DNA of 63,411 nucleotides, filler included, from Hausera hauseri (GCA_046269625.1; 11 parts of 11 records of this genome joined end to end with filler, not necessarily neighbours in it), one strand, 5' to 3'; shown: positions 4,316-62,330, counted from the first letter of the whole stretch. The notes: generated by a model not told the origin, from the letters alone. Numbers and translations are program-made.

Positions 4316-4707
4316 GCATCGTGCACCTTCCGTTCCGGTACCGTTCGACTAGTCGCTGCCCAATTGCCGTGGGACCGGTGCCCGCTCACCGCTATCGTTT
4401 TCCAGTTCCCCATAAACCATATGCCGGTCCTGGCTCACTTTTTTGCCCGAGACCCTTTCTTCCGCCCGATATCCCATCGACTTCGTTCCTTCACCGTTCG
4501 ATGCGCCTTTGCTTCCGCATCATTTCTATGTGCAACACATCTCCGTGCACCACTTCTTTCTTACATCCTCTTTTTTCGTGCACTTCCCCTGCTTCCGGGG
4601 TGCACCATGCACCGTGCATAGCATATTTTTTGAAATCTACGTCGTCGAATCTATCCTTCCGTGCGGCTGTGCGCATCAAACAAGCTTCGGATTGGCTGCA
4701 TGGCAGC

Positions 4708-4748
4708 CCCCGGGGGGGGTGAGCCAGGACCGGCATTTTTCTACTACT
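4708..4748 (+). mobile_element. Polinton/Maverick-like right terminus (ends ...CTACTACT-3'), abutting or inserted into the retroelement 5' LTR
   Basis: CCCCGGGGGGGGTGAGCCAGGACCGGCATTTTTCTACTACT, homologous to 1759-1795; abrupt switch from GC-rich to AT-rich sequence right after it. Confidence 0.65.
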
Positions 4749-5293
4749 CTGGATATTTGAAGCGTGTAATTTTTAAAAATTTTCTAAACACCCAATGTAA
4801 TTGAAAAATTATATTAAAGCTAAACATTGGAGTCTTCTATTTTTCTGTTTTCAGTAATTTGATAATTTTTTATTTCTCCAGGTAGTTTGATATACCTAAA
4901 TTTAATCGTAAGGAAGATACTGAGCTTAATTTTCCGATTGAAGAAATATTTTTTGTGATTCTGAAACACAAACTGTTGCTTAATCACTTGACATAGAATA
5001 TGACAAAATTTCAATTGCTTATAGGTTGATAACGTCGCCTGTCATCAAAACGAGAAAACAATAAAAGCTCAAAAAGAAGCAGAGCTAAAATTAGACAATC
5101 AGGACATTCGCATAAACATTATTTCGTATTTCTTCATTTTCGCCCTAACATTCAAAGGAATTTCTAAATTTTATAATATTTCAAATTATTTCAACCAATA
5201 TTCTGCTTAGGTTCGATTTCTAGTGTGTCGTAAATATCCTTCTACCACAAAGTATTTGTTAAATTAACAGTTTTCATAATCTCAAACTTAACA
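4749..5293 (+). repeat. 3' part of the 5' LTR (ends ...CTTAACA; AATAAA near 5060)
   Basis: Ends in AACA one base before the PBS, complementary to the TGTT start of the 3' LTR. No overlap is visible with the 242 bp of 3' LTR present, so the LTR is probably longer than ~790 bp and truncated at its 5' side. Confidence 0.6.
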
Positions 5294-5294
5294 T

Positions 5295-5312
5295 TGGTGT
5301 CCCTAGTGAGGA
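5295..5312 (+). promoter_or_regulatory. Primer-binding site, elongator tRNA-Met-like
   Basis: TGGTGTCCCTAGTGAGGA directly after the LTR end; resembles the complement of the metazoan elongator tRNA-Met 3' end (TGGTGCCCCGTGTGAGGA, from memory). Confidence 0.7.
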
Positions 5313-5411: not shown

Positions 5412-6260
5412 ATGAGACTCTCAGGACAACAGAATCTCCAGATGTCCAGCTCAGGACTGTGCCAGCATAGGCAACAATGGCACAATGGTTTTACCATGGA
5501 CAAATTCGAAGACACACCAGATCAGGACTATAGTGAGTTCCTGATGCAGTATCATATGTATTACGAAAGCTTCGCATGGACAGACGAACTTAATATAAAG
5601 ATTATCCCTTTGTATCTCAAACGTATAGCACTTAGCGTTTACACACAAATCACAGATGATGACAAAGCTGATTGGGCTAACCTTAAGAAGTCCCTGGAGG
5701 AAAGGCTCTTAGCAGACCCATCAGGAAAGGGTCGAATTGGAGAATTCAACAGAAGATGTCAAGGAAAAGGCGAAACCGTGCAAGAGTTTGCATGTGCCCT
5801 TCAGAAGTTGGCTCAGAGAGCCTATGTAGATGAAGATACAAGGGAAGATGCTCTCCTGGCTCAATTCTGTTATGGTATTAACAAAGAAATACAGAATTAC
5901 ATTATTGTTGCAGATCCCAGCACATACAAAGAAGCTGTTAGTAAAGCAAGAAAGATTGAAATTAATTATGAAAGATTGGAGAATACGAAAAGGCCGCCCC
6001 GAAACGAAGATAAAAAGATGAAAAGTTTTCAACAAAAGAAAAATTTTCAACCAAGTCAAAATTTTCAGAAATTCCAAAAATTCCCGAATCAATCTGGACA
6101 ACAGAAAAAGGTTACTTGGCAGAATCAATCCCAGAATACTTGGCAAAATCAGCCTCAAAAATCTGCGATGAGAAAACCAATGGTAAACCAAGACGGACAA
6201 CCATTGTGTTTTGCATGTCAAAAATATGGACACATGGCCCGCTCATGTCCTATGCAAGGA
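5412..6260 (+). other. Gag region (retrotransposon capsid-like + CX2CX4HX4C nucleocapsid knuckle at ~6207-6248)
   Basis: RCQGKGETVQEFACALQKLAQRAY...LLAQFCYGINKEIQ is the typical Gypsy gag signature; zinc knuckle CFACQKYGHMARSC. Confidence 0.88.
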
Positions 6261-9200
6261 CAATCAAGCCAGAAAAAGAAGAATATTGATATGATCGGTA
6301 ACATATCGGACACTGATCATGAACATGAAACCACAGACACAGAACCTGAAGAGTCGATAGAAAAATTGCAACAGAAAATTAGAAGTAAATTAAAAGAGTG
6401 CAAAACGAATACAATTGAAGAAGATGAACATAAAATTGCTGAGTTAAAACAGCTGTATCTGGAATTAAAAGAGCAGCAAATTTGCGAAGAGCGACATAAA
6501 AAGACGAACGAAAATTCGATTATCGCTCCAGTAGGCAGACCCAAGAAAGTGCCTGCCTCGGAACCAGATACTGAAAAGAAAAAGGTCAAAAGAAAAGATA
6601 GACCATTGATACAAGAAGAAGATCTAAAAACTCCATCATATTCACCTTCCGGAAGCGAGGAAAGTGAAGGAAGTAAGAGGAGCGAAGGCGAACAGAGTGT
6701 GAAAATAAAAAGAGTAAGAAGAAAGAAAGTGACGGAATCGCCGCAGCAAATAGAAACTCCACCTGTTGATTTGGATCAACATGGCACAGAAATCGTACGA
6801 CAAATGATGAGATATGCCAACCAGGAATTGATAGATGGTGCACAGTTCAGGCAGGATCTCTCTATGTTGTTAACCCCAACGATCAGTCACCAACAATTCG
6901 CTGATTTATTGGATTTATTATTAATACATGCCGCCGATGGAAATCCCCATCGCAATTTCGTACGATACGTAATCTACCGTTACGCAGAGAGAGTGAGACT
7001 TGTCAGAGAAAATCCTGAAGTAAGGATCACGCTGCAACAGTACAATCAAGATTTTAGTGTTCTAAAAATGAAATCGTTGGATAATGTAGCTACATTGAAG
7101 CATAAAATCAATGAGACGATCCAAGGAGAATTAGAATTACGTTTTTATGGACGGACGCTATTGGACTACGAAACCATATACGAGGTAGGTATGTGGGAAA
7201 ACAGGTATAATCCAGTATGCCTGGCGCTAAGACAGAGCGAACAAGAAATAATAGATGAAATACTTGCCGAAGTTGCACAGAAAGATACTCAAGAAGCTGA
7301 ACCACATTATGAAGCTCAACGGACAGAGATTGGAACAAATATTCCTATATCAGAGCAGATTCAGACCGACAAAAGAGGCCGCGGAAGACCAAAAGGAACA
7401 ACGAAATTGTACCAATTGAAAGGCAGAAAAGCGAGAGATGACGAAGTTGTTCGGAGATTATTAACAACTGAAGAGGAGTATGATGCTGCTAATATCTCAT
7501 TAACGATGTTGTTGCAAACTCTTTTAGCTAGAATGAATCCTGCCTTCGTCGAATTTAACACCAATCTACAGATACCAGATTCGCTAATGCGGAATATTCG
7601 GAATGAGATAACAAAAATTAGTGAGCAGTTTGCAGATATCCCCACAGACGAGAGAATAAACGAAATACAAGAAAGAGATATACTCTCAAGAATGATGGGA
7701 ACGGGAATATCTAGAAACAAAATTATGACAGCTATATCCTATCTCTTATACAAAATAATAGTAATGAATGGTGTAAACCCAAACCAAGAAGAGATAGAAA
7801 GAAATATAGAAATAGCTACAAGAGCTTTGAAAGCTAACGTCGAAGGATGGGTTAAATGTCGAGGAGGATGGATCAATAGTCTGATTCAAATACAAGAATC
7901 CACATCTGCTATGTATGAACAAACAGAAAATCATCCACCACGTCTACAAGAAAGACAGCAACACCAACAACCAGATTTTGATTTATCTTGGTTAGTCAAA
8001 ATTATACCTATTCTTCTATTATTTAGTTTTATACCAAAAACGCATACGATTATCGCTTACGATTGCAGCCAAGCCAAAGAGGGACCGATATATTCCTTGT
8101 TGGACTTGGAAAAATGTCCGTATGCTAATCCAGCATCATTGACTACAACAACTGATAGAGAATATTATGTTTATCAAGAGTCAGAATTTGTAAGAACCAA
8201 GGTGAGAGAATGCTTTGTACGAAAGAACCACTTCCATTTTATTTGTGGATATTGGTATAGAAATTCAGCCATAGTAGAACCAACTACTCCGTTCGAACCA
8301 CTCGCGATAAGTAAACGAATGTGTGTTGAGGCCTTCGTAACAAAGCAGATTAACATCGGAAGTGTCCGGTTAAAAGCCCAGAAAGGAAAAATCACCAACA
8401 AAAGAATTTTTGTAGCAGGCACAATTGACAAAACAGGATATTGTAAAGGAGAATCCTACAATATAAATGGTGAAATTCTGGATAACATAGTAGCTATTGA
8501 GGATTATCAGGTTGAATTAAGGGAATATGATGCCTTGTTTGAATTGGAATCGGGAAAAATGATGACGTTTCCTGAATGTGACTATTACAATAAAGAATGT
8601 GATACAGGTGAATCTATCATGTCATATGAAGTGGATAAAGATCAATGCCGATTAGCATTACTAAGAAAAGGAAAATTTAATGAAACAAAAGGCCGAATGT
8701 TCAAAGAAGAAATATCAAAAAGTAGATTAGACCGAGTATCGGATATGGTTGATACTCCAACTATAGCATACTCAGCAGATCCAAGCGAAGGTATGAGATT
8801 TAAAATAGAAAGTGACACGAAAAGATGCGACCAAGTGGTATATCGAACTAACTATAAAGGTATATTTCTATCAACAAGCGAAATAAAAAAGGCACAGAGG
8901 AAAATTGATAAATCTGAAGTAAAGCCGCATCTATATTTCGATAATAAATTAGATTTTATTTATCACTTCCAACAAGAAAACATCTACTCCATGTATCGTG
9001 AAATAATATTGAACGATTGCAAGATGAATCGAGAAATAATCCGAAATAGAATATATCTATCAGCAATAACGGATGGTATAATAAAAGATCCTGCCGAATT
9101 ACCCGACGCAGAAGGAAAATTCGCACGGACAATGGGTGAAACGCTAGTTACATTCGAATGTATAAGAGTAGCTGTTAAATTAAGACCAATTGCAGAATGC

Positions 9201-12200
9201 ACTATGGAACTACCTGTTTGGTACAAAAACCAGTCACGATTTCTACAACCAATTACCCGAATATTACTGGAATCTGCGGAAAAACCATACGTGTATCAAA
9301 ATTGTACGTACACAATGTCGCCGGCATTCCGGCTAAGTGATAACTATTGGGTTAGGATGCCCAAAAAGGAGCAGATTACTCCGCCTCGGAAAATTAGTTT
9401 AATTAATCTAAAGACTGAACAACAGTATAAACCTCTAACAGAATTGGTAAAGATGGGTGTATATTCCGAACAAGATATGGAAAATCATAGAAGAATGATG
9501 ATGTTCCCTCAACAGAGACAAAAAGTTTTAACAGAGATGGCGATGAAAGTACTATCTGACCATGATGGAAAAGCTAATTGGGAAAACCTAATGGGACCCG
9601 ATTATGCCCAACGAATTGCCAAAAATATATTCGCAACCGCATGGGGATGGTACATGTGGTTTGGCCAGTTCAATTCTGGATGGCTAGGATTCTACTACAT
9701 TTTCGCATTTGTAAAAGCTATTCTTACAATGATAACTAAAGGTTACGGCATTAAACAAGCCGCCGGATGTACATGGAAAATCGTCTATGCATTGATTCCA
9801 TCTCTAGCTAGTTGTTTCCTAATAAAACAAGATGCTCAATGGAAACAAAAGAATAAAAATAAAAATGATTCAAACGACGATGAGGATATACCTCCAACAA
9901 AGAAAGTCAAGCCTCGTCCAAATCCACCTTCAAGTACAAGAAAAACATGGAGCTTGATCACAGCCCGAAGTAAGAAACGAAGAACGTTGCTATCAGACAT
10001 TCCACAAATGAAAAGATGGAATGAATATCCGATGGAACAATACCAGTTCATCACCAACGATTACGTAGATGTACATTACCCTAGTGACATGGAAAACTAT
10101 GATCCGAAACACATGAAGTTAACTTTTTACCCATCGGCTCCAAAAGAAGCTTTAATAACCAGTATAGATGGCGGTAAAGTAATACCCAGAACGGTAATTT
10201 GGATTGATGGACATCCCATTACCGCAATAATTGATACCGGAGCATCAGCATCGATGATTTCGCGAAAACAATTACCGGAATCGTTGAAGAAAAAGTTACT
10301 GAAACCAACAGAAGAACTTACGAATGTTGGCGCATTTGGAACAAAAGTGCAAGTTAGAGATCTAGTAAAATGCGAAACAAAAGTTCTTAATCAAAAATTT
10401 GAACAAGAATTTAGAGTAGCAGACGAATTGGTAGCCGAAGCTATACTCGGATGTGACGCATTGGCAAAGCTAAAAGATACGTGCATTCATCTGGAAACTC
10501 AGCAACTCCAACCATATAAAAAGGTGAAAAATGGAAAGAAAGATACAGTATCCGTTAAAGAAGATGTGCTGATACCAGCTAGGACAGAAATCGTACTCAA
10601 AGCCTTGGTACAAGGAAAAGATGAAGGTGACGTTTACATTGAACCAAACATAAACTTTATGAATAAAAACGAATTATGGATAGCTCACTCAATTGATAAT
10701 ATCCGAGAACAACAAGTAATTGTTAGAATAGCCAACGTTTCTAATAAGTCCAAATTGCTCAGAAAAGGAACAATAATTGCTTACGTATATACCATAAAAG
10801 ATATAGGCAGTAATGCGACAGAAGCCATTATATCGACCGTTCAGGAATTATCAGAATTCATGGAAAGACAACGGCAGAAACCACGGACAGAATGTGGACA
10901 GCGATTTGAAAATGAACCTTTAAACAAACTAAAAACTCATCTTAACAAAAACAAGAAAACTATCTTGTTAGTTAAGACTCCTATCAATTGGCCAGATTAT
11001 GACTTATTTGGTAGAGAAAGCGTACTAACAGACGAAGAGAAGGAAGGTATAGTTAAAATATTAGAGCAATATAAAAACGTGTTTGCAATAGACGAATATG
11101 ACATGGGAATAATACCTGTCATTAAGCACGAAATAAAACTGAAAGCAGGAATGGAAACGCCTATCAAAAAGAGACCATATCGACTCAATTACGACAAAAG
11201 AGAGAAGGCTAAGGAAATAATAGCCGAGATGAAACAATATGATATAATTAGACCAAGTAATTCTCCTTGGGCGGCACCAATTGTAATGGTACAGAAGAAG
11301 GATGGATCGATTAGAATGTGCGTAGATTATAGAGCCCTCAATGAAGTAACGATAGATAACACCTATCCGTTACCCAGAATCGATGAGATGTTGGACAAAT
11401 TGAAGGATAAAATGTTGTTTACTACACTAGATCTGCAGAAAGGATTCTGGCAGATAGAAGTTCAAGAAGAAGATAAGCAGAAAACTGCTTTTGTAACATC
11501 AGATGGACACTACGAATTTAACCGAATGGCATTCGGAATGAAAAATGCCCCGGCAACATTCCAAACAGCTATGGATATAATCACTATGGATGCCCCACAC
11601 ATAATGTGTTATGTAGATGACGTTATAATTGCTTCAACTGATTACAAACAGCATAAAGAACATCTGAAAGACATGTTGGAGAGATGCGCACTCCTTGGAA
11701 TAAAAGTGAGTCTCAAGAAATGTTGTTTCGCCAGGACAAAAGTTGACTTTTTGGGTCATACAGTGAGCAGAGAAGGTATCAATCCACAGATCGGCAAGAT
11801 AAACAAAATCCAGGATTTTCCAGTCCCAAAAACGGTCAGAGGAGTTCGAAAATTTCTCGGTTTAACAGGTTACTATCGGAAATTTGTTAAAGATTACCAG
11901 CAGATAGCTTCTCCACTACATTCATTGTTACAAGAAAATTCTAAACTTGTATGGACACAGGAATGCCAAAAAGCGTACCAACAATTAAAAGATAATTTAT
12001 TAGCCCCACCTGTACTGGCCTATCCAAATATGTCAAAACCATATTTCTTGGCTACGGACGCAAGCAAGGTCGGTATAGGAGTCGTTTTATCTCAAAAGGA
12101 TGATCAAGGACAGGAGCATCCAATATCATTTGGAGGAAGAAAGTTAAGAAAACATGAAAGAAACTATTCTACCATTGAACGAGAATTACTCGCGATAGTT

Positions 12201-15200
12201 TATGCATTGGAACAATATGGCCAGTATTTATCCGAAACCAAACCAATTGTCATATATACTGACCATAAGCCATTACAATGGTTGAAGAACCACAAAAACC
12301 CAAATAGTCGCTTAATGAAATGGGCTATGTTACTTCAGCCTTATAATTTAAAGTTTGAATACAAAATGGGTAAGGCCAACGCAAACGCAGATTATTTGTC
12401 AAGAATGCCCGAAGACTCAGGTCAAGAAAAAGATGATTTGGCAGATAAACCAGGCGTTATAGCAGCTATATGGACTATCACGGAACAGGAAAAGTCACTG
12501 TTACAAAAACAACAGAACGACGAACAAATAAAAGAGATTAAAGGATACATGCAAAAGAAAAAGATTCCGAATAATATTAACCTCTATACCCATCTAACAA
12601 AATTCGCTGAAAATTATGAGATAAAAGACGAGATATTATATTACAATCAGAAAGGAAAGCTGGTTGTAGTTGTCCCCCAAGAAGATATCAAATTACTGTT
12701 AACTCAATATCACGACGGTATGATGGGAGGACATCAGTCAGTAAAAAGAACGTTAGGAAGACTGAAAAGAAAATACTTTTGGTATACTATGCCAAATGAT
12801 GTGCAAGAATGGTGCAAAAGTTGCCCCATCTGCGCCACAAGAAAGAATACGGGCTCAAAAATTAAAGTTCCACTTAAACCCTTAGAATGTCCACCAGCCC
12901 CAATGGAATTCTCAGCGATGGACATTCTAGGACCCTTACCAATGACAGTTAACGGAAATAAATACATGTTAGTGTTTGTTGATTTATTTTCCAGGTGGCC
13001 GGTCGTAATACCAATACCAGATCAAAAAGCTCAGACGATTGCCCAAGCCTTCGTGGAAGAAATCGTATTTAATTATGGAGCTCCATCTAAATTGCTAACG
13101 GATCAGGCTCAAAATTTTACGGGAGAAGTAATGGCTGAGATTTCAAAAATATTTCAAATACTGCAACTAAAGACAACCCCTTACCATCCGCAGACGAATG
13201 GTACGGTAGAAAGATTCAATGGAATTTTAACAAACATGCTGGCCACAATGGTCAATGAACGACAAGACGACTGGGACGAATATATCAAGCCGTGTTTGTT
13301 CGCAATAAGGAATACAATTCATCCTGCGACAAAAGAAACTCCATTTTATTTAATGTATCTTAGAGACACGCACATGCCAGTCGACTTAGAACTCAAAACC
13401 CCTGTTTCACATTTAAAGGATATGGAGTATAAGGAATTGTTAGAAGAAAAACTCGGATATGTATGGGATTTAGCTTCGCGACACACAAAGATGTGTCAAA
13501 AGGAATACAAAGCTCGTTATGATGAAAAAGCTAAACCGCATAATTTCAAACCTGGAGATAAAATTATGTTGCACACTCCACTGAGTAAGAAAGGAAAAAC
13601 TCCAAAGTTGAATAGACCATATAAAGGTCCATATACAATTCAAAAAGTAGATGAAACCAACATCTATTTAAATAGGAACAAACGAAATAAGATAGACCCA
13701 ATAAAAGTCCATGTAAATCGATGCAAACAAGCACCGACAGAATCAAAAATAAGAAGTGAAGGTTTAAGTTTACCAGTAATGACACTAATGATGTTATGTC
13801 TAATAACATGTACATCGGCTGAACCATTAGACGTGGAATATAAAGCCGTCCAAGTAGGAAAGTATCCTTGTATAAAAATAATAGCTAATCGAAATCTAAC
13901 CAATGACGATTATATACCCATACACATAACAAAAAAATGGTCAACCAAAGTGGCTACTTCGGAACATTGTAGCCTATATTCCGGACATTCTACGCACGTC
14001 TGTTGCGGACTTTCTTTTGGGATTTCATATAGAATCCAGTATGCAATTTGGAGGAAAACCAATAATAAATGGTATAAATCCTATTTCTCATATCCTGGTT
14101 CTACTCACTATTTTAACGAACCGTATTTTCTCGTTGCATTTTACACAAAAATTATGAAAAATGGACCATGCGTAATGGCAGAACCAGAAGCCCCAATAAC
14201 AAGATATCGGACACTGGAATATCAGATTGAAAACAAAACGAACAAGATGGTTTGCAGACCAGATTACCAAAACCCGTATTTGTGTTGTCCCATAACCTAT
14301 GACAAAGAGTACACGATATATTATTGGACGACAAATGACAAAAAAACATGGTCAAAAACGTCAGATGGACCGGAAATAATGGTGAAATCTCCAAAAATGA
14401 AAACAACGACAATCATCTCAACAAGGATAACCACCTCACCATTCACTCAAAAGACAATGACTAATCCAGTAATAGAAGTAAAGAGAATTATTAAAGATCT
14501 AGATATAATTATCCAGTCAACTACACATTCCCTCATCATCACAGTATCAGATCTAAAAACTACGAATGTAAAATTCGAATGCTTCCTTCACCATAGGTTA
14601 GTTGGTGAAGGAATAATAACACCAGACGAACCTACATCGGCCTGTACATTTTTGAAAGCCGACACAAATTATAAAGTCTTGATTACCGAATTAGATGAGG
14701 ATGGTCAAACTCTACAAGTTGTCAAACGAAAAGAAAAGACGTCGAAAGAATTGCTCATAACTACAAGAAGAGTTATAAAAACAACAACCACTCAAAAACC
14801 AAAAAAGATTGATAAATACTTACTAATAATTATTGCACTAAGTACCTCAATGTTAATAATGATTACACTAGCCCCAATAATTATCTGCTATACTAAAATA
14901 AGACGTAGAACACAAAGAACTAATGACATGATAAATCAATTAAAGTTACTAAGACAAAATTCCTTAGACGAATCAATAAGTGATATAGATGCGCCAAATA
15001 ACAATGAAATCCGCCAGGCTGAAAAGCCAGGCGAACCCCAACGGCGAACTTGCCCGTTAAGAGATACCACAGTATGCCTTTGTACTCAAGTACGAGACGA
15101 GGCCGCTAAGATACTTGCGACCTACATGAAACACAGATATATCACTAAAATACTCGCGATTAATAAAAAACAGCCAAAGTGCAAAAACTTTTTCGTATCA

Positions 15201-16703
15201 AAAATCTGGCCGCTGTTAATATTAATTCTTTTAGTCGGCGAAGGAACCGAACAAGCAGAGCGACCAAACAGTTTCTACCACAATATGGTAGCCAACTTGC
15301 TTGCAGCTAACAAGAATTTCATCTATTACGAAAATGCCGCAATGGTGCCCAACCATCTAAAAGGGCATACAGTGAATCAAAGAAGTGGCCTTATAATCAG
15401 GCAACAATCTTATACGATAAAACTATCCGATCTGGTTGATATTACTAAGAGAACAATAGCTATCTACATTTCAGTGGCCAAAGGCACTATTCAATTGAAA
15501 AGTAAGGCTAACCTAAATGAAATAACCGATACTCTCCTTGTCCCATCACCAACCACAATTAGGTTGGATGAAAAATTCATTAAGAATGTCGAACTAACGA
15601 TAAGGGTAGTAAATGAAGTCTACCCCATAATGTATATTGAAATCATTAGGCAAGAATCACTTCCTTCTGATGAATCAAAGAAATTCAATTATTCCATGCC
15701 AATCCCAGACGACACCCTACTGGAAAAGGGTATGTCATTTGAAAGATTATTGAACATACGCAAAGAAGATATAGTCATATTAGCAACGAACGTGGCATAT
15801 TTAATGGAACCAGTTCGACGATCGGAAGTGGCTCTTATAGAAATTACCATTCTGGACGTGGACGGTAAAACTATCCTGGACAAAATATTATGTCCGCGCG
15901 AAAGAATCGATAACTATAATAGCCATGTAACTGGCTTGAGAGAGTCAAACATAATAGGACAGATGGACCTCGTAATAATGTACCCACAAATTAAAAGCCA
16001 CCTTATGGGAAAAATCGTTGTAGGGATGAATGTATATTATGACCTCAACAATGCTCTCCGATGTAGTCACCACCTTGTGATGGGTATAAGAGATCTACTT
16101 CACCATCAAAAGGCTAACCCAAAACAGGAGTTTAATGCCAAATACATTTTAATGGCATTCAACAATGGTGTCTACCCCAAAAGAACGAAGGAAAGGGCAA
16201 AAGTAATCTTGGATATATACAACACAATCCCCGAATACAGGATTAAAGAATCAACACTTTCCACAACTAGCTTAACCCCAGCAGATAGCCCGCCAAAAAC
16301 CTTGGGTATGATGAAAATTCCCAAAATCAAAAATAAATCTATATCTCCATCCCAAGTTGCTACAAAAATAAATGATCAACCTTCAACATCCTCGCAAAAA
16401 TGCCTACCAAGTGAGAATGACCCACCAAAGGAAGTCTCGGCTTATTCGGCCAAATCTTCGACCGAAGTTAAAGAAATACAATGCGAAATGCCCGGATCAA
16501 CAGAATCAATAGTAATCGACTTAACAAAGAAAAGAAAATCATTTTCCCCCAAAGAGACAGTTACATTCAAACGAAGAATCAGAGAAAAAAACCAGTGGCT
16601 CCAGATTGACTCAGTCTGCTATAAACGACCAGATGGTTCTTATAAGATCTACCCTCTGAAGCCGAGGACGGCTTCATCTAAGGAGGGAGATGTTCAGAAA
16701 TAA
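5412..16703 (+). CDS. Single Gag-Ubl-Bcl2-Env-Pol-FN3/TM-exonuclease polyprotein (3763 aa)
   Basis: Uninterrupted ORF with CFACQKYGHMARSC, AIIDTGAS, YPLPRID, YVDD, LATDAS/ERELLA/YTDHKPL, H-H-C-C zinc motif, DILGP/LLTDQA/VERFN and YKGPY motifs. Confidence 0.95.
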   Translation: MRLSGQQNLQMSSSGLCQHRQQWHNGFTMDKFEDTPDQDYSEFLMQYHMYYESFAWTDELNIKIIPLYLKRIALSVYTQITDDDKADWANLKKSLEERLLADPSGKGRIGEFNRRCQGKGETVQEFACALQKLAQRAYVDEDTREDALLAQFCYGINKEIQNYIIVADPSTYKEAVSKARKIEINYERLENTKRPPRNEDKKMKSFQQKKNFQPSQNFQKFQKFPNQSGQQKKVTWQNQSQNTWQNQPQKSAMRKPMVNQDGQPLCFACQKYGHMARSCPMQGQSSQKKKNIDMIGNISDTDHEHETTDTEPEESIEKLQQKIRSKLKECKTNTIEEDEHKIAELKQLYLELKEQQICEERHKKTNENSIIAPVGRPKKVPASEPDTEKKKVKRKDRPLIQEEDLKTPSYSPSGSEESEGSKRSEGEQSVKIKRVRRKKVTESPQQIETPPVDLDQHGTEIVRQMMRYANQELIDGAQFRQDLSMLLTPTISHQQFADLLDLLLIHAADGNPHRNFVRYVIYRYAERVRLVRENPEVRITLQQYNQDFSVLKMKSLDNVATLKHKINETIQGELELRFYGRTLLDYETIYEVGMWENRYNPVCLALRQSEQEIIDEILAEVAQKDTQEAEPHYEAQRTEIGTNIPISEQIQTDKRGRGRPKGTTKLYQLKGRKARDDEVVRRLLTTEEEYDAANISLTMLLQTLLARMNPAFVEFNTNLQIPDSLMRNIRNEITKISEQFADIPTDERINEIQERDILSRMMGTGISRNKIMTAISYLLYKIIVMNGVNPNQEEIERNIEIATRALKANVEGWVKCRGGWINSLIQIQESTSAMYEQTENHPPRLQERQQHQQPDFDLSWLVKIIPILLLFSFIPKTHTIIAYDCSQAKEGPIYSLLDLEKCPYANPASLTTTTDREYYVYQESEFVRTKVRECFVRKNHFHFICGYWYRNSAIVEPTTPFEPLAISKRMCVEAFVTKQINIGSVRLKAQKGKITNKRIFVAGTIDKTGYCKGESYNINGEILDNIVAIEDYQVELREYDALFELESGKMMTFPECDYYNKECDTGESIMSYEVDKDQCRLALLRKGKFNETKGRMFKEEISKSRLDRVSDMVDTPTIAYSADPSEGMRFKIESDTKRCDQVVYRTNYKGIFLSTSEIKKAQRKIDKSEVKPHLYFDNKLDFIYHFQQENIYSMYREIILNDCKMNREIIRNRIYLSAITDGIIKDPAELPDAEGKFARTMGETLVTFECIRVAVKLRPIAECTMELPVWYKNQSRFLQPITRILLESAEKPYVYQNCTYTMSPAFRLSDNYWVRMPKKEQITPPRKISLINLKTEQQYKPLTELVKMGVYSEQDMENHRRMMMFPQQRQKVLTEMAMKVLSDHDGKANWENLMGPDYAQRIAKNIFATAWGWYMWFGQFNSGWLGFYYIFAFVKAILTMITKGYGIKQAAGCTWKIVYALIPSLASCFLIKQDAQWKQKNKNKNDSNDDEDIPPTKKVKPRPNPPSSTRKTWSLITARSKKRRTLLSDIPQMKRWNEYPMEQYQFITNDYVDVHYPSDMENYDPKHMKLTFYPSAPKEALITSIDGGKVIPRTVIWIDGHPITAIIDTGASASMISRKQLPESLKKKLLKPTEELTNVGAFGTKVQVRDLVKCETKVLNQKFEQEFRVADELVAEAILGCDALAKLKDTCIHLETQQLQPYKKVKNGKKDTVSVKEDVLIPARTEIVLKALVQGKDEGDVYIEPNINFMNKNELWIAHSIDNIREQQVIVRIANVSNKSKLLRKGTIIAYVYTIKDIGSNATEAIISTVQELSEFMERQRQKPRTECGQRFENEPLNKLKTHLNKNKKTILLVKTPINWPDYDLFGRESVLTDEEKEGIVKILEQYKNVFAIDEYDMGIIPVIKHEIKLKAGMETPIKKRPYRLNYDKREKAKEIIAEMKQYDIIRPSNSPWAAPIVMVQKKDGSIRMCVDYRALNEVTIDNTYPLPRIDEMLDKLKDKMLFTTLDLQKGFWQIEVQEEDKQKTAFVTSDGHYEFNRMAFGMKNAPATFQTAMDIITMDAPHIMCYVDDVIIASTDYKQHKEHLKDMLERCALLGIKVSLKKCCFARTKVDFLGHTVSREGINPQIGKINKIQDFPVPKTVRGVRKFLGLTGYYRKFVKDYQQIASPLHSLLQENSKLVWTQECQKAYQQLKDNLLAPPVLAYPNMSKPYFLATDASKVGIGVVLSQKDDQGQEHPISFGGRKLRKHERNYSTIERELLAIVYALEQYGQYLSETKPIVIYTDHKPLQWLKNHKNPNSRLMKWAMLLQPYNLKFEYKMGKANANADYLSRMPEDSGQEKDDLADKPGVIAAIWTITEQEKSLLQKQQNDEQIKEIKGYMQKKKIPNNINLYTHLTKFAENYEIKDEILYYNQKGKLVVVVPQEDIKLLLTQYHDGMMGGHQSVKRTLGRLKRKYFWYTMPNDVQEWCKSCPICATRKNTGSKIKVPLKPLECPPAPMEFSAMDILGPLPMTVNGNKYMLVFVDLFSRWPVVIPIPDQKAQTIAQAFVEEIVFNYGAPSKLLTDQAQNFTGEVMAEISKIFQILQLKTTPYHPQTNGTVERFNGILTNMLATMVNERQDDWDEYIKPCLFAIRNTIHPATKETPFYLMYLRDTHMPVDLELKTPVSHLKDMEYKELLEEKLGYVWDLASRHTKMCQKEYKARYDEKAKPHNFKPGDKIMLHTPLSKKGKTPKLNRPYKGPYTIQKVDETNIYLNRNKRNKIDPIKVHVNRCKQAPTESKIRSEGLSLPVMTLMMLCLITCTSAEPLDVEYKAVQVGKYPCIKIIANRNLTNDDYIPIHITKKWSTKVATSEHCSLYSGHSTHVCCGLSFGISYRIQYAIWRKTNNKWYKSYFSYPGSTHYFNEPYFLVAFYTKIMKNGPCVMAEPEAPITRYRTLEYQIENKTNKMVCRPDYQNPYLCCPITYDKEYTIYYWTTNDKKTWSKTSDGPEIMVKSPKMKTTTIISTRITTSPFTQKTMTNPVIEVKRIIKDLDIIIQSTTHSLIITVSDLKTTNVKFECFLHHRLVGEGIITPDEPTSACTFLKADTNYKVLITELDEDGQTLQVVKRKEKTSKELLITTRRVIKTTTTQKPKKIDKYLLIIIALSTSMLIMITLAPIIICYTKIRRRTQRTNDMINQLKLLRQNSLDESISDIDAPNNNEIRQAEKPGEPQRRTCPLRDTTVCLCTQVRDEAAKILATYMKHRYITKILAINKKQPKCKNFFVSKIWPLLILILLVGEGTEQAERPNSFYHNMVANLLAANKNFIYYENAAMVPNHLKGHTVNQRSGLIIRQQSYTIKLSDLVDITKRTIAIYISVAKGTIQLKSKANLNEITDTLLVPSPTTIRLDEKFIKNVELTIRVVNEVYPIMYIEIIRQESLPSDESKKFNYSMPIPDDTLLEKGMSFERLLNIRKEDIVILATNVAYLMEPVRRSEVALIEITILDVDGKTILDKILCPRERIDNYNSHVTGLRESNIIGQMDLVIMYPQIKSHLMGKIVVGMNVYYDLNNALRCSHHLVMGIRDLLHHQKANPKQEFNAKYILMAFNNGVYPKRTKERAKVILDIYNTIPEYRIKESTLSTTSLTPADSPPKTLGMMKIPKIKNKSISPSQVATKINDQPSTSSQKCLPSENDPPKEVSAYSAKSSTEVKEIQCEMPGSTESIVIDLTKKRKSFSPKETVTFKRRIREKNQWLQIDSVCYKRPDGSYKIYPLKPRTASSKEGDVQK
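7020..7230 (+). other. Ubiquitin-like (beta-grasp) domain within the polyprotein
   Basis: VRITLQ...DNVATLKHKINETIQGELELRFYGRTLLDYETIYEVGM matches the ubiquitin pattern DTIxxVKxKI...RLIFxGKxLxDxxTLxDYxI; the relative at 24055-25095 has YVRDVREWL...RFYFRGRILDELEQLIDVGI. Confidence 0.75.
7500..7885 (+). other. Bcl-2-family-like helical domain within the polyprotein
   Basis: BH3-like LMRNIRNEI, BH1-like GISRNKIMTAISY (consensus GxNWGRIVALFxF) and BH2-like VEGWVKCRGGW (consensus LxxWIxxxGGW), in the correct order with plausible spacing. Confidence 0.65.
7989..9830 (+). other. Envelope glycoprotein, chuvirus-like / herpes-gB-related class III fusogen
   Basis: Signal peptide WLVKIIPILLLFSFIPKTHT, mature start IIAYDC...YSLLDLEKC, Cys-rich ectodomain, GETLVTFECIRVAVKLR...CTMELPVWYKNQSRFLQPITRIL motif typical of chuviral-type glycoproteins, C-terminal TM segments. 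Confidence 0.8.
10180..13740 (+). other. Pol: aspartic protease (DTG ~10233), RT (YVDD ~11610), RNase H (~12040-12400), integrase with HHCC, DDE and GPY (~12690-13740)
   Basis: Canonical Ty3/Gypsy motifs and domain order; catalytic residues appear intact. Confidence 0.95.
13770..14890 (+). other. Second membrane protein: signal peptide, three FN3-like Cys-containing domains with a Thr-rich linker, TM helix
   Basis: SP LPVMTLMMLCLITCTSA; repeats ending CCGLSFGISYRI / CCPITYDKEYTI / CTFLKADTNYKV (FN3 LxPxTxY tyrosine-corner pattern); TM YLLIIIALSTSMLIMITLAPIIICY. Confidence 0.65.
15770..16240 (+). other. DEDDh 3'-5' exonuclease-like domain (REX4/ISG20 type), catalytic motif I degenerate
   Basis: IEITILDVDGKTILDKILCPRERIDNYNSHVTGL...IKSHLMGKIVVGMNVYYDL matches the REX4/ISG20 pattern; the expected DxE is replaced by LATNVA. 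Confidence 0.72.
16680..16690 (+). promoter_or_regulatory. Polypurine tract
   Basis: AAGGAGGGAGA immediately before TGTT; the relative on the minus strand has AAGGAGAGGGGAA|TGTT. Confidence 0.8.
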
Positions 16704-16932
16704 CATTTCGATTTACGGTTTAATTAACCGAATTTGTGAATTAATTAACATTTTGTTTTCAAAAACAATTTTAATTGATTTTAGACTATGGTTTATTTTG
16801 TTTTCGTGATCTGGTGTTATCTTTGTTTTTGTAAAAATTATTTTTATTCGGCTTCATTTTTGTTCTTATCCCTGATAAAGCCAGATGTATTTTTCATGAA
16901 AAATGCCATTTTTGTTGATTTCTAAAGAGGTA
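16691..16932 (+). repeat. 5' part of the 3' LTR (truncated by contig end); contains the ORF stop codon
   Basis: Starts TGTTCAG directly after the PPT; AT-rich and non-coding after the stop codon. Confidence 0.7.
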
Positions 16933-21464: not shown

Positions 21465-21966
21465 NNNNNNNNNNNNNNNNNNNNNNNNNNNNNNNNNNNN
21501 NNNNNNNNTTAATTAATTAANNNNNNNNNNNNNNNNNNNNNNNNNNNNNNNNNNNNNNNNNNNNACGAATGATTTTGTTGTTGATACAAAAAAGTTTTGT
21601 TTTAATAATAGTTTTTTTCTTATTTTGAAATTTGATGTCAGCCATGTTTTTGATCTTACGAGTCAATTGAAATCTCTAATAATATTTTGAAGTAAATTTG
21701 ATTTTCTCCATTTTGGATTTTGCCGTAATTCAAATTAATTTACTGTGCATACATTTTCTATTCCGCATTGTTTCGTTAATCGGAGTGAACAAATATTCAT
21801 GATTTTTGCAGCAGCTTTTGAACTTTTACTGTTATGGTTATGAAAATCGCAGCCTCAGTTATTACCCTTCATGCTTTTTCTGGAACAAACGAAAATGAAC
21901 CTTGTTGTTGTCTGTTGCAGATAGATAATTTTCATTGTTTACTTGGCTGTGGATGGAACTCAAATT

Positions 21967-27069: not shown

Positions 27070-27250
27070 ATGATAATGGCAATCTTCTGATAATTTCTTT
27101 TTCATCACGACCTATTGCTGCACTTTGAGATTTGTAACTTTTGAAAAAAGAGAACAATTTTTCTAGATTTCCGTTAAATTTTTCTACATTTATATCTAAG
27201 TGTTAAATAGTATATGCTCGTTTTTCAGTTGTCTGTCTTTCTGTTGACAT
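27070..27250 (-). pseudogene. Gag N-terminus downstream of LTR+PBS
   Basis: MSTERQTTEKRAYTI*HLDINVEKFNGNLEKLFSFFKSYKSQSAAIGRDEKEIIRRLPL aligns with MDKFEDTPDQDYSEFLMQY...WTDELNIKIIPLYL of the intact element. Confidence 0.6.
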
Positions 27251-27420
27251 TTTGCCTATTTCTAAATGAATTATTTTATCAAGGATACTATCTTCTAGTT
27301 CGAGTAATAATTCAATAAATTTCTTTTTAAATTTTCGAGTCCAAATTTTGATTCAATGAATGTTCAATAATAAGTTGATAACAGATTCAATAAACACTAA
27401 ACACTCCTCCTGCCTTAATT

Positions 27421-27433
27421 CGTTCAAGCGCCA
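27421..27433 (-). promoter_or_regulatory. PBS-like sequence (tRNA-Lys-like TGGCGCTTGAACG)
   Basis: TGG start two bases after the putative LTR end; resembles the tRNA-Lys PBS TGGCGCCCGAAC. Confidence 0.5.
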
Positions 27434-27435
27434 AA

Positions 27436-28006
27436 TCTTATTTCAAGATTGATTGAGGGTAGATCACAATTCAATTTCCAAAAATTGAACAAATAAGATA
27501 AAGTAAAACACTTATTTGAATAGAAATGAACCAAATTTACAAGCTAGTGTGGCTTAGCTATTTAATATAATTCACTAGAGAAATTAATAGGAATTCTGCT
27601 ACTAATCGTTTTATAAAAGATCTCTAATTCCGCTTTTAACTCCGGAGTACCGGGATAAAACTTGTCTTCTCTCAATTTAATCACCAATTTTTATACCAAA
27701 TTTTTAATTAACCTTGTAAATTCTGACCAATTGAATTCAAAAGTCTTTTAGTAATAATTTTTATTCCATTAAAACAAAGTTCAATTTATCATTCTCAGTA
27801 TTATTCTGTACTTATAATGAAGTACAATTATTTTTAACTTAATTCTAAAATTATCATATAGATTTTGATCAAGTATTTGTAATATTCATATTAATAGATT
27901 TTGCCATGTCATTTATTATTTTAAACAATGTCTCAAAATATCTATTTGTAATGTATGGATTTCTTAAAAATGTAAGTTATCTCTATTTTATTATTTTTTT
28001 CTAACA
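27436..28006 (-). repeat. LTR (~570 bp; TGTTAG...ATAAGA) preceded by a PPT at 28007-28019
   Basis: Minus strand reads AAGGAGAGGGGAA|TGTTAG; bounded on the other side by a PBS-like motif and a gag start. Confidence 0.62.
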
Positions 28007-28199
28007 TTCCCCTCTCCTTAAAGGGATCTATATCTCGATTATTATTAGCAGCAAAATTCCTCGTCAATAAATCAATAAAATAATTTTTTATTTGTACATA
28101 ACCCTTTCTAATACATGCAATATAACAAAATAACACAATAACGAAAGAAAAATTAAGAACAAAGAGAAAAGCGAGTAATCAAAATGTCAGTCTTAAAGT

Positions 28200-31100
28200 T
28201 CAAATAGTAAAAATGTTAATTTCTTCTTCTTTGTCTGTCTTCGATCTTCCTTCTTCCAATTCAGTTTCCGATTTAACAGTTTTATTCGGGTTTTTCTTCC
28301 TCATAAGGTCCAAAATTTCTCCAGTATCGCCAAAATGGAAAATGTATTCATCGTCATTGAATAAATGGTAAATAGAATCGTCTGGTTTGCTGGTAATCAT
28401 GGTTTTTATAGGTATCCATGTAGTCAATCCTTTTCTCACCACTAGTAATCCCGACAGATCATGTGCACTGTTCTTGGGTACAATTTTAGTTATTATCTGC
28501 GAAGGAATAACCAATTGACACTTAATTTCTGTAATGGTAGCGGACCTTTCTGGGTTCATTTCCATTGTAAGATCAAAGATATCCGAATACTTTCTATATG
28601 GAATAAGTATTTTCTTTTCACCCAATATCTTTGTATATTGAGCAGCTATCAATTTATTTCCAGTACTCTCCCATTTCATTATCTGTTTTTGACTGATTCC
28701 ATTCTGAACTGACACATTTTTCTCTTTTAGAATTTCATCCAGAACTATTGGAATAATTAATCCATTCCCAGTAAAAATTAACAATATTCCATTGACTCGT
28801 ACTTTGTTTGTTACGTTTTCAGTAAGAGCATACAACAATCTTCTCATTAATTCATTGCTTTTCATCGGCTCTGTCTGTGTTTGCATTTCTCTTGAGTTTA
28901 TCTGGCTCCATTTTTGTTTTCGCGGTTTGATTTCTTCTACTTCATCGAACATGATCTCTAGAATCTCACAATCGATAGTTTCAAATTCCTCTTCCTCCAA
29001 TTTTTCTTGTATTTCTATTTTCTTAGTTTCTTTACCTTTAGTTAAAGTAGCATTAGTACCATACTTCAAATTAAACCCAATTGTATATTGTTTTTCACGA
29101 TTCAAAACATCTTCAAAGTCATTTATATTGTCATTTAAGTCCGGTGGAATCCAATCACATGTTCCAATTAGTTTTTAGTGTGCGGTAATAGTCAACTGTA
29201 ATCTTCCTCTGGTTGTACTAGGAAATCGATTCAAACTCAATACATCGATTAATTGTTTAAACGTTTTGACTTTATTGTCCATAGTATTTTCTACATTTTT
29301 AATGGGTCAAAAATTGCACAAGTCTTATTTGTTGAAATACATAGTGCTTTAAAAGTTTTATGGGCTTCCAGAGCCACTATTTTGTAACCCAAAATATACT
29401 TTTCAATTTCTGATTGTGCCAATCTAGAATCCGTACCATTTTCAATTTTGTCCCAGCTTACTCCATGCCTGGAGTTATTCAAGTTGTGTATAGCTCTTCT
29501 GGGAGCTATTATTTGGTCAAATAATATTTCTCCTTTCTTTTCTGCAATCACTATTTCAATTGGGAGCGGGATAGATGTTCCGTCGAATTTGTGTCCATAA
29601 GCAAATGATACTGACAGATATCTTGTGCTCCCTGATTTATTGGTATATAAAATATTTGGTTCCATTGACATCTCTTTTCCATTTATGGTTAACGGCGTTA
29701 TTAATGAAAGTTTTTGTTCACTTCTAATAATTTCAATCATTCCTATGTTGAGGATTTCTTTGACAATGAAGCGAGTTTTTGTCTGATCTATTGAAAAGTT
29801 TACTTCACATAATTCTTGACAAGATATTGTTTCCATAGAATATCTCTGTCCTTTTCTTTTTCTGAAAATGGCCATTATTCGTCCTATTGCTCATGTATTA
29901 TTATACCAAGATTATTATCGGCCCATTGAGGCAACCTAAAAGTGGTACCTGCATTAAATACCTTGAAGGGAAAATTTTCTCGGTTCCTCATCTCGCCATA
30001 TTTAAGGGTGTTAGGTATTTTAGAAACACTAGTTACTCTTTCGGAGTTATTGTCCAAATGTTCTATAATTCTATCATAAAAGGAATATGTCATATTTTTG
30101 TCCGCTGTACTGAATCTTCTTATCTGTTCTTGATCATATTGTCTATTGATTGGAATATTTTCAGGTATCTTGAAAATTTCTTTCCCTCCGATTTTTGGGG
30201 TATCCTGTTTCATTTGACTGGTACTTGGCATATAACTTTGTTTTTCGCTCGATTCCGACATACCAAAAATTTCGTCTTTTCTTGAACGTTTTCTGAATTT
30301 ATATCTCGCCAGGTTTGTTATGATTGGTTGACCAATCAGTTTTCTTTTCCAGCTATAAGTCATAATTAGGTGAAGTACTAAATCCAATCTAAATATCGCA
30401 ATATATGTACTCAAATTCTTTATCACTTCTTTAAAGCAGTACAGAGTTTCAGTATGAATCTGAGTCAAAACTAATATAGGTATAACACCAAATGTAGTGG
30501 TATGGTCTTCAACTTTGTTTTCTTATCACTTATATTCTCGTTTTGAGTTATTATTTCTCCTGTCTTATTACTTCCTTTCTCTTCATTTATTGGTAAGCAA
30601 TGTTGGTTTCCCCCAATTGTGGAATAATATAATTCACAATGTTTTTTCTTGCGACAATGTTGGGTTTTTGGCCAAGCTATAACCATCATAATAATTATGC
30701 CTATACTTATTATCACGAATATCCACCAGTATTTTGTAAAATACGTTTCAATAATTTCCGGTGTAATTGTAGTTAATTTCCATTTTTCGTCATCATTGTT
30801 GTACCTTATGTGACGATACTGATCTATTGCTGGTTGTGTTTTTATTGCTACTATCTTTGAATTATCTGAAGTTTCTATTCTCACCAAGTAATTGGTGTCA
30901 GGCGTTAATTTTTCGCAGAAATTTCTTTTATTTATTTCGTACTTGATAGTAACTTTTTCATGGGAACCTGTACATGTTACTGTGATGTGCCTTTCGTTTA
31001 TTATGTTTTGCAGTATTACTTCAATGCGATCCATATAAGGCGTTAATTTGAATTTGATGGGGAAGTCTTTGATCCATTTTCCATAAAATATATGTTTATG

Positions 31101-33432
31101 TAATTTCTGTTTCGACGTAGATGGTCGTTGGTTTTGTATTGACTCCCGATCTGCCCTACCCTTATAGGTGGGTGTAGTCCATAATGTCGACGTTATCATC
31201 TTGACCATTGAAGGCGGTGCGGTAATACGAGGCTTAGCAAAAACCGGAATAGGTATGTTTGGTTTAACTGCGAAAAGAATAGGAATACAATGAGAATGCA
31301 CTATAACAGAATGGCTATTTTCCATTGTTAGATATGCATCTAAACGGATTCTGTACCAAACGTATGTATAAAGTGTGCAGCATGAACGAGTATCATTCCG
31401 CTTGAGATAACAATAATGTGGTTGTTTTACCGATGTAGAAATGGGGTCAAGCCATATGCTGATTTCGAATTTAATGGGTAATAGCTGCGTAGTGCGAAAA
31501 TTCATAAAAGGTGGTTGTCTTGTAATGTTGATACTAGAAAATTCAGTATCATGTTCTAAGAAGTGAGCGATAAAAGGATTACGCTAAAAACATGGCAGGT
31601 TTCCAAGAAATGCATCTCCTGATAAGTAAGAACGCAAAGAATCATGTTTGGCTCCCAAGAAATAGTATCGGTATTATTCACTTTCAGTATTACATAGTAT
31701 GTATACGTCGTATCGTAATTGATGGAGCAGCAGATTTTGTTAAATGTTTCAAAAATTGAGCAAATTGAAGAGATATTATACTGTGATATAAGGAAGAAAT
31801 CAACTTTATGGTGTATTATTACCGGCGAGTGAGTGCGAATGCAAATACTGGGTTTGTTTGTGTCAATTTTGATAATAGTAGCGCGTGTAATCAAATCAAT
31901 AAATGGTGTAGCTATTGCGTTGGTTGTTGTTATAAGTATTACGAATGCGAGAAAAATGAGAAGTATGATAGCCAAGTATCGGCTCTGAACATAATGAACA
32001 GAATAAGTTTCTAATGTATGCATCTCGGAAGTCTGATACACTGCTACTTTAGGCTCTTTTGTTGTGGATGATTCTAGGTCTGTTTCGCGTATGAAGTCGT
32101 TATATGACGTAGGTGCTCGAGTTACTCGTTGGACAGACACAGCCTCATATTTATCAGGTCCTTTTTCAATAAAAAGCGTTTGTGGACGCACGTCAACAAC
32201 TTTGTACGGTCCTTGACGGGTACGGGTTAATTTTAACGATTTGCCTTTCTTTACAGCGGTGTAGTGAACCATTATGTAATGACCAATTTTATAAGTATGC
32301 GGTCGAGCTTTCTTGTTAAATTGCTTTTATATCCCGCTCTATATTTTTCTTCAAACTGTTTCGCTTCGCGTTGAAAGTATTCAAGTCGTTTTAGTAAGAT
32401 CTGGTACTGATCATCCATGTAATCACTAGTTAACAAGGATGACGGCAGCAACTCCGTATCCAATGGTAATAACGGCAATCGACCAAACATTAACTCAAAA
32501 AGTGAATGATTGGTACTTTTGGTAGGCGTAGTATTAATTGCAAAGGCTGTGATTTTCAGATGGTTATGCCAATCCTTTTGATCATTTGCTACCTTTGTAG
32601 AAAGAATACCTTGAATAGTACAATTCATTCTCTCAAACATACTATTGCACTGTGGATGGTATGATGTGGTTAACAAATGTTTGCATTGAAGTATTTTTGA
32701 CAATTTTTCAAAGTATTCGCTAATGAAATATGGTGCACGGTCAGTTAACAACTGTTTCGCGGTGCCAAATACAGCAATAATTTCGTAGAAAAAGGCTTCA
32801 GCAAGTGTGCTACTCGTCATATTCTTTAATGGCACTAGTATAACATAGCGAGAATAGTAGTCAACCAAAGACAGAATGTATTTGTATCCTGAGTATGAAG
32901 CTGGGAAGGGTCCGGAGATATCCATTAAACACACTTCCATTGGTCTCCGTGCTTCTGGTAAGCTTCCTAAAAATGGTTTTACACGAGATCCTCTATCTTT
33001 TTTAGTTGCACATATTTTACACGAACGTACCCATCCTTCAATATGCTTATTCATTTGAGGCCAATAGTATTTTGCAGTTATTCGCTTTAAAGTCTTATTC
33101 AAGGACGGATGTCCAGCTAAATGCGAATCGTGTTCTTGTAGCATGACAGCCTTGATGGCCGGTGTGGGTACAAGGATCAGTTTTTTTTCTCCGACTTTCA
33201 GTCGTAAAATGCCATTTCCAATTTCAAGGTTCTCTCGGTTCTTTTCATAAAATTTTTGGATATGACTTGATACTGGATTATGTAATTGACCGTTGATTAA
33301 TTGTTTAACTTGAACAATAAAGGAATCCTGATTTTGTAAAGTCTCTAGGTTTCTCACCTGAGCTCGACGTTGCTCTTGTAACATATCGTTAATGATTTTC
33401 TCATTCAATTGTTTGTCATTTTCATTATCTAA
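28200..33432 (-). pseudogene. Decayed relative of the giant element: integrase(GPY) - SP - 3 FN3-like - TM - unknown domain - DEDDh-like exonuclease - C-terminal extension
   Basis: Integrase 32272-33408 (HDSHLAGH, CKIC, DISGP, LLTDRA, FERMN); RQGPYKV; SP YLAIILLIFLAFVILITTTNA; LTPDTNYLVRI; TM YWWIFVIISIGIIIMMVIAW; IEIVIAEKKGEILFDQIIAPRRAIHNLNNSRHGV...YILGYKIVAL. Confidence 0.85.
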
Positions 33433-62212: not shown

Positions 62213-62330
62213 GTTGAGTTGTATAACTTCCTTGGAAAAGACAATGTTCCATTCCACAGTGTCATCTTTCCAGCATGCCAGTTGGGCACAAACGATGGTT
62301 ACACTGTCGTCAGTCACATGGTTGCCACAG
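62213..62330 (+). CDS. MARS1: Internal exon of cytoplasmic methionyl-tRNA synthetase
   Basis: ag|[39 protein letters not shown]|gt; KDNVPFH is the MetRS signature. Confidence 0.85.

Follow-up and report, generated by a model that had tools for sequence, protein, structure and literature searches.

A predicted ISG20/REX4-type exonuclease domain with replaced catalytic residues, fused to an AlkB-like fold, in a retrotransposon polyprotein of Hausera hauseri

A two-domain module is encoded near the 3′ end of a retrotransposon polyprotein in a 63,411-nucleotide stretch of Hausera hauseri DNA (GCA_046269625.1), hereafter the window, which consists of 11 contigs joined by N-linkers. The contig at 4316-16932 carries one open reading frame (ORF) of 3763 codons (5412-16703, plus strand) belonging to a Ty3/gypsy element, referred to here as element 1, and the module contains a domain with the predicted fold of the ISG20/REX4-type DEDDh exonucleases in which four of the five catalytic positions are replaced. 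An initial annotation, made from the sequence, had proposed an inactive nuclease fold at the polyprotein C-terminus; the domain is indeed near the end, but a tail of about 150 amino acids follows it and a partner domain precedes it. Neither the fused AlkB-fold domain nor the catalytically intact relatives of the family figured in that annotation. The module and its surroundings comprise the following features:

15186..15234, plus strand: short hydrophobic, signal-peptide-like stretch adjoining the module on its 5′ side; the DNA also reads as a pyrimidine-rich splice-acceptor-like site ending at 15234
15237..15665, plus strand: partner domain with the family PN-x-LK motif, a predicted double-stranded beta-helix of the AlkB/2-oxoglutarate (2OG) oxygenase type, without the conserved H-x-D/E...H triad
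15768..16244, plus strand: putative DEDDh pseudo-exonuclease domain of ISG20/REX4 fold, polyprotein amino acids ~3453-3611, with A, N, D, K and R in the catalytic columns
16245..16700, plus strand: low-complexity, disordered and basic tail of about 150 amino acids, with a basic motif at 16527-16538 resembling a nuclear localization signal (NLS) and presumed to act as one

The assignment of the nuclease domain relies on sequence and structural comparisons that agree with each other. In a phmmer search of 15735-16250 against PDB sequences, ISG20 (1wlj, E = 2.1e-5), ISG20L2 (7yw5, 2.3e-4) and SDN1 (0.021) were the top three of six matches. The AlphaFold2 model of 15237-16289, obtained from a 32-row alignment, reached a mean predicted local distance difference test (pLDDT) of 86.8 and a predicted template modelling score (pTM) of 0.84, and ISG20 matches its residues 178-336 (window 15768-16244) with a Z score of 17.7 and a root-mean-square deviation of 2.5 Å over 154 aligned residues, in agreement with Foldseek. 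As modelled, the domain has a DnaQ/RNase H-like DEDDh fold of the ISG20/REX4 type, which bears out the scaffold initially placed at 15770-16240, and the comparison with ISG20 reveals no full set of active-site acids. The Pfam RNase_T profile (PF00929), suggested earlier as a check, matched neither nuclease site of the window, and an ESM Atlas search returned only RNase_T clusters under 0.9.

A family alignment with ISG20 and ISG20L2 as anchors served to place the catalytic columns. In element 1 the ExoI motif reads A-x-N (D>A at 15783, E>N at 15789), the ExoII Asp is retained at 16041, and both ExoIII residues are exchanged (H>K at 16179, D>R at 16194), the alignment being less certain in this last segment. 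The replaced codons (GCA, AAC, AAA and AGG) are each two to three bases away from any codon for the canonical residue and lie in a frame free of stops over 11.3 kb, and sequencing error as the cause of the loss, in particular a single read error, was therefore rejected. In the available portion of the source, Asp-to-Gly changes at D11, D94 or D154 are each reported to abolish the nuclease activity of ISG20, and ISG20-D154G to keep its antiviral activity without catalysis (PMC7756014); the ExoIII Asp column is also the position mutated to Ala in the ISG20L2 structure 7yw5. Since single Asp changes suffice to abolish ISG20 activity, canonical exonuclease activity of the element 1 domain is, judging from its sequence, very unlikely. 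The loss of the ExoI DxE noted by the initial annotation at two sites of the window is confirmed, with A-x-N in element 1 and S-x-S in the second element described below, and the case for inactivity is stronger than was claimed.

An exhaustive protein search with the nuclease domain retrieved 73 proteins at E up to 0.001, comprising 31 family-like sequences that were aligned, four family-like fragments that were added to one tree, and 38 that were host-type REX4/ISG20/SDN proteins or one spurious match. The intact set of D-x-E, D or E, H and D is present in 17 of the 31 relatives; ExoI is lost in 12, most of which have also lost ExoII, and the remaining two keep ExoI but are truncated. Dead forms are probably over-represented in this count, since the search started from one of them. 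Pfam RNase_T recognises 12 of the 31, all with intact motifs (12 of the 17 intact and none of the 12 dead relatives), and the family profile matches ISG20L2 at 1.4e-25. Most intact relatives, such as P0005, P0006 and P0013, carry Glu at ExoII, a DEED-type arrangement seen likewise in unrelated rotifer DEDDy ORFs. Most relatives are predicted as single ORFs of 420-680 amino acids, which fits intronless mobile-element genes. A word-indexed search for homologues of the module found none among 5806 candidates, and a word-indexed search with the alignment found one; in prokaryotic genomes searched with P0005 none of 31 pattern matches was confirmed, and phages gave no match.

Phylogenetic trees separate the family from host-type proteins with supports of 100/96 and 100/100, so that the analogy with ISG20 drawn at the outset holds for the type of fold and is otherwise loose, the family branching apart (100/100) from the host-type REX4/ISG20-like proteins. 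Within the family the dead forms lie nested between active ones, and the sister of the element 1 sequence is P0002. The number of catalytic losses depends on the tree: they fall near one branch (89/89) in the nuclease tree that includes the catalytic columns, where P0047 is mislabelled active, correspond to two changes when these columns are removed, and amount to five changes in the partner-domain tree, two of them forced by starred branches (approximately unbiased test, p = 0.12). The second tree omitted ten rows, mostly fragments and long branches, the second element included. Across trees, one to five losses would thus have occurred.

The partner domain, of about 140 amino acids, lies N-terminal to the nuclease domain and is present in 24 of the 31 aligned relatives. 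A profile built from 18 relatives, with the window excluded, recovers residues 3281-3432 of the polyprotein (E = 1.5e-12) and none of the host-type proteins. Folded alone (pLDDT 82.6), it resembles ALKBH6 (Z 12.0, 2.7 Å, 135 aligned residues), OsALKBH1 (Z 11.8), Ofd2/ALKBH7 (11.7) and Escherichia coli AlkB (11.2; 132-136 residues aligned), with prolyl hydroxylases scoring within 1 Z unit, plain cupin-like structures at 9.4 or lower, and the N-terminal domains of vaccinia C16 sharing the fold at 9.2; among the viral structure matches are polyproteins of plant RNA viruses and 2OG oxygenases of giant viruses. A low-confidence Atlas model of the relative P0005 also gave cupin/2OG fold matches, with template modelling scores of about 0.4. 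These fold matches share 4-12% identity. The H-x-D/E...H iron triad is not conserved in the domain, His being missing from the core in element 1, and 5 of 25 family members contain an H-x-D/E string, at differing places, with only a single conserved His; no conserved Arg column corresponds to the 2OG-binding Arg of the last strand, the register being taken from the range ends of the structure matches. No AlkB Pfam family matched the partner domain, an ESM Atlas feature search with it gave nothing informative, and hhalign against the single E. coli AlkB sequence returned a probability of 0.2%, that is, no sequence similarity. Without a conserved triad, a last-strand Arg or sequence similarity to AlkB, the AlkB/2OG likeness of the model is therefore one of fold and not of membership. 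A designed CyRPA protein matched by the partner-domain profile in the PDB (E = 0.006-0.03) was rejected as a chance beta-strand match.

Retention of the dead fold, which the initial annotation had assumed, receives indirect support. Six positions (G, P-R, D and G-x-R) are invariant in 13 of 13 ExoI-lost sequences, in which the frame is kept and PN-x-LK is also preserved; the invariant family-specific residues are unlike the REX4/ISG20 pattern. The module is encoded 3′ of every core enzyme, where a useless domain should gather stops, and open frames together with invariant motifs across long branches thus argue for a dead module kept in a retained role. The alternative that the domain is a vestige merely drifting since catalytic loss, with truncation still to come, can draw on the longer branches and lower identity of the dead forms, on the broken module of the second element and on the failure of Pfam to recognise any dead relative against 12 of the 17 intact ones. 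Its position 3′ of all core enzymes tolerates stops, however, yet open frames and invariant motifs persist in several lineages that are separated by more than one substitution per site, and the model is confident (pLDDT 86.8), so that such a vestige is regarded as improbable.

As to the nature of the retained role, the leading reading, at somewhat less than an even chance, is that the module of element 1 would be a non-catalytic nucleic-acid binder, probably nuclear, which holds the RNA or cDNA ends of the element uncut and competes with host decay or silencing factors. An ancestor would have captured a cellular REX4-type exonuclease, which would have become fused to a degenerate oxygenase fold and served as an active 3′-5′ nuclease; the lineage of element 1 would have lost the metal site and kept the fold with its conserved surface, and the dead module may bind the RNA or cDNA ends of its own element without cutting them, the bound ends being then the object of competition with host decay or silencing factors. 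A nucleic-acid ligand is favoured because both parent folds act on nucleic acids and basic residues often replace the acids of the former active site (at ExoI, 6 of 13 dead sequences have E>R; at ExoIII, element 1 has K/R), and because NLS-like motifs are over-represented in the tails (13 of 22; shuffles give 4.4, and none of 2000 is as high). Maelstrom, EXD1 and PML-PXL offer precedents for RNA binding by dead DEDD domains, the accessible parts of the sources describing the first two (PMC5408684) and the third (PMC13659232) as dead DEDD domains that bind nucleic acid.

Several observations weigh against the nucleic-acid binder. The retroelement context is known for just two members, the others being predicted proteins, one of them from a Logan contig; the nuclease domain of the dead group is more divergent (mean identity 27% vs 40% in the active group), as expected under relaxed selection; its net charge in element 1 is only +2, within a range of -4 to +14 for the dead group; the NLS test was much weaker on tails taken too short (5 of 16, reached in 70 of 2000 shuffles), and the relatives are not independent; and the hydrophobic stretch before the module could route it to the secretory pathway. 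R53, the Arg by which ISG20 contacts RNA, is not conserved even in active members, so that the ligand could be RNA, DNA or protein. At the tail end (16600-16700), a short and possibly beta-rich motif was seen by eye in common with P0002, P0008, P0019, P0028 and P0048, but went unconfirmed in the window when a small profile was applied.

A protein decoy or scaffold, in which the two dead folds are kept for binding host proteins (REX4/ISG20L2-type nuclease partners, silencing or DNA-sensing factors) and not nucleic acid, is unlikely but retains an appreciable share of the probability. The nearly neutral charge of the nuclease domain and the departure of the invariant residues from the REX4/ISG20 pattern are in its favour, as is the fold that the partner domain has in common with vaccinia C16 (Z 9.2), a host-antagonist protein. 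Element 1 carries other host-mimic-like domains (ubiquitin-like and Bcl-2-like), and the BIR/RING region of Burro1 is described, in the part of the source available, as acting on host apoptosis (PMC13465017). That both parent folds act on nucleic acids and that basic residues fill the former active site speak for the nucleic-acid binder instead. A broader version of the latter, rather doubtful as a whole, is that the proteins form a family of accessory proteins of retroelements, widespread and so far undescribed, in which an AlkB-type fold is fused to a REX4-type exonuclease. Its active members would trim the ends of RNA or cDNA, and the protein would independently have become, in several lineages, a doubly dead nuclear RNA reader, expressed separately through splicing, that protects the transcripts of the element against host decay or surveillance based on modifications; such a counter-defence would resemble that of viral AlkB and ExoN domains but work without catalysis. 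Arenavirus ExoN is a catalytically active enzyme, and the parallel with the arenavirus NP in the initial annotation is accordingly loose and gives no precedent for a dead domain. According to the accessible text of PMC7968707, arenavirus ExoN suppresses innate signalling.

The hydrophobic stretch at 15186-15233 might alternatively be a third internal signal peptide, with the module acting outside the cytosol or in a particle envelope. Basic residues precede and acidic residues follow the stretch, the polyprotein has two similar internal signals, and similar leaders occur in the sister sequence P0002 and in P0011; such a leader is found, however, in only 2 of 24 relatives, the tails are NLS-like, and there are only two sequons in 488 amino acids. 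The same DNA can also be taken for a splice acceptor, with pyrimidines at 9 of 12 positions and a rank within the top 13 of 336 sites, whose phase agrees with that of an ATG-led donor at 4718; this reading may itself be due to chance, since other top sites also sit in hydrophobic coding sequence. Secretion is considered quite unlikely. An active-site switch of the kind proposed for Maelstrom in the available part of PMC7968707, by which the domain would still be a nuclease or modifying enzyme using family-invariant residues in place of DEDDh, could invoke the ExoII Asp and G-x-R-D motif kept in element 1 and the invariant Arg/Asp residues, but it is highly improbable, as the dead group shows no new conserved cluster of its own of His, Cys or acidic residues and most dead relatives lack ExoII.

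The two nuclease sites had been described as copies, whereas they belong to two different elements:

29291..30096, minus strand: same two-domain module in a second element, diverged and broken, with ExoI S-x-S and ExoII T
27070..33432, minus strand: contig of the second element, broken up by stops and frame changes, which carries its integrase, membrane-protein region, module and tail

With a whole-module family profile built without the window sequence, the first part of the partner domain was found in the ORF at 29887-30522 on the minus strand (E = 0.016), and its remainder with the ExoI/ExoII region in the ORF at 29294-29890 on the same strand (E = 1.6e-14), both among 1826 window segments. 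Two copies of one element were rejected: the nuclease domains are 27% and the integrases 38% identical, and the separate contigs are merely N-linked. The region 21565-26969 (minus strand) is a broken Gag/Env part of another Burro-like element, with fusion glycoprotein pieces about 23% identical to those of element 1, and may or may not belong with the contig at 27070-33432.

The internal region of element 1 measures about 11.4 kb, and its organisation is as follows:

4316..5293, plus strand: probable 3′ part of the 5′ long terminal repeat (LTR), ending in AACA; a primer-binding-like site starting with TGG lies at 5295
5412..16703, plus strand: single ORF of 3763 amino acids, with Gag/CCHC, weak ubiquitin-like and Bcl-2-like segments, fusion glycoprotein, protease (PR), reverse transcriptase (RT), RNase H (RH), integrase (IN), membrane protein and the two-domain module
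7038..7871, plus strand: ubiquitin-like (E = 0.015) and then Bcl-2-like (E = 0.012) segments between Gag and Env, both weak and under the Pfam cut-off
8001..9929, plus strand: Env-like Monjiviricetes fusion glycoprotein (Pfam, E = 8e-85), in frame, with Gag before and protease after
10185..13190, plus strand: protease followed by RT, RNase H and integrase (Pfam), in the order PR-RT-RH-IN
13776..14891, plus strand: signal-like segment, then an ectodomain that contains Cys and is partly rich in Thr, then a transmembrane helix; matches no Pfam family
16680..16932, plus strand: polypurine tract (16680-16690), then the probable start of the 3′ LTR (TGTT at 16691), from sequence

The PR-RT-RH-IN order and an RT whose nearest solved structure is that of Ty3 identify element 1 as a Ty3/gypsy retrotransposon. 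Its putative LTR features are TGTT...AACA ends together with sites that resemble a polypurine tract and a primer-binding site; its flanks are too short for the two to overlap, and the stop codon of the ORF falls just within the probable 3′ LTR. The probable LTR also contains a perfect 18-bp inverted repeat (arms 4421-4438 and 4719-4736), one arm of which begins exactly at the splice-donor-like site after 4718, with strong acceptor-like sites downstream at 4854 and 4881. Both elements encode a second membrane protein 3′ of the integrase (13776-14891, plus strand, and about 30470-31900, minus strand), each with a signal-like segment, a Cys-containing ectodomain, a Thr-rich stalk and a transmembrane helix, and neither with a Pfam family. 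No dUTPase-like domain was matched between PR and RT by Pfam or PDB sequence search, and a word-indexed search found no full-length relative of the polyprotein among 724 candidates of polyprotein length, which is weak evidence.

Element 1 shares with the planarian giant Gypsy elements Burro/GYPSM1, as presented in the available part of PMC6431247, one long ORF, Gag, ubiquitin-like and Bcl-2-like domains (both weakly matched in element 1) and an in-frame mononegavirus-type Env before PR-RT-RH-IN. Those polyproteins measure 4873-5140 amino acids against 3763, and Burro has MATH, BIR and ankyrin domains and two or three CCHC knuckles, whereas the Pfam scan of the element 1 polyprotein detected none of these domains and there is one knuckle; being smaller and without MATH, BIR or ankyrin matches, element 1 is Burro-like only. 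The same part of that description lists neither an exonuclease nor an AlkB-fold domain, and literature searches turned up neither a DEDDh/REX4-type domain described for Burro-like elements nor this fusion with an AlkB fold; the primary Burro papers or Repbase may already annotate the region.

Accessory DEDD and AlkB genes are each already known in Gypsy elements, as far as the sources available go. Bdelloid rotifer LTR retrotransposons and Terminons likewise carry a DnaQ-like 3′-5′ exonuclease gene, ORF3, 3′ of pol, with a DEED variant; it is, however, an RNase D-like DEDDy protein whose invariant residues are intact and which lacks a partner of oxygenase fold, in contrast to the DEDDh, fused and dead domain of element 1 (PMC5408684, with accessory DEDDy nucleases of rotifers also mentioned in PMC6338049, both in the portions available). 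A 2OG-oxygenase fold is carried by an orchid Gypsy element and by plant RNA viruses as well, but the orchid AlkB is described in the accessible text as a recognisable, active N6-methyladenosine demethylase (PMC9289625), unlike the partner domain with its fold-only likeness and no iron triad. Exuperantia (Z 10.6), Maelstrom, EXD1 and PML-PXL similarly reuse, so far as their partial descriptions show, a dead DEDD fold for nucleic-acid binding; these are host proteins, whereas the module of element 1 is element-encoded, of the REX4 type and only a presumed binder. From ISG20, ISG20L2 and REX4, whose fold and motif layout are alike (Z 17.7, 2.5 Å), it differs in the replacement of four of five catalytic residues, the fused oxygenase-fold partner, the separate branch and the Glu at ExoII of many active relatives.

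The module unites two folds captured separately by viruses and retroelements and fills an unannotated part of Burro-like polyproteins; its dead form, which escapes Pfam, has for that reason probably been overlooked so far. How accessory nucleases serve LTR retrotransposons is an open question, those of rotifers (DEDDy) being untested according to the available part of PMC5408684, and the family offers natural intact and dead pairs on one scaffold, by which catalysis and binding can be separated through comparison of natural proteins.

Elsewhere in the window, the contig at 17033-21464 has long minus-strand open frames (506, 320 and 193 amino acids) without a Pfam match, and 39762-40813 contains attractin-like Kelch and laminin-EGF exons, which together with the DNA-transposon pieces of the window indicate an animal genome rich in AT. 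A long degenerate low-complexity repeat with extreme strand skew occupies 46900-50946, and a repeat common to two neighbouring contigs (79-84% identical) lies within 56419-61564. Fragments of a protein-primed DNA polymerase B (Polinton-like; 55961-56320), of a piggyBac-type transposase (59184-60158) and of a methionyl-tRNA synthetase-like protein (61736-62374) were also observed.

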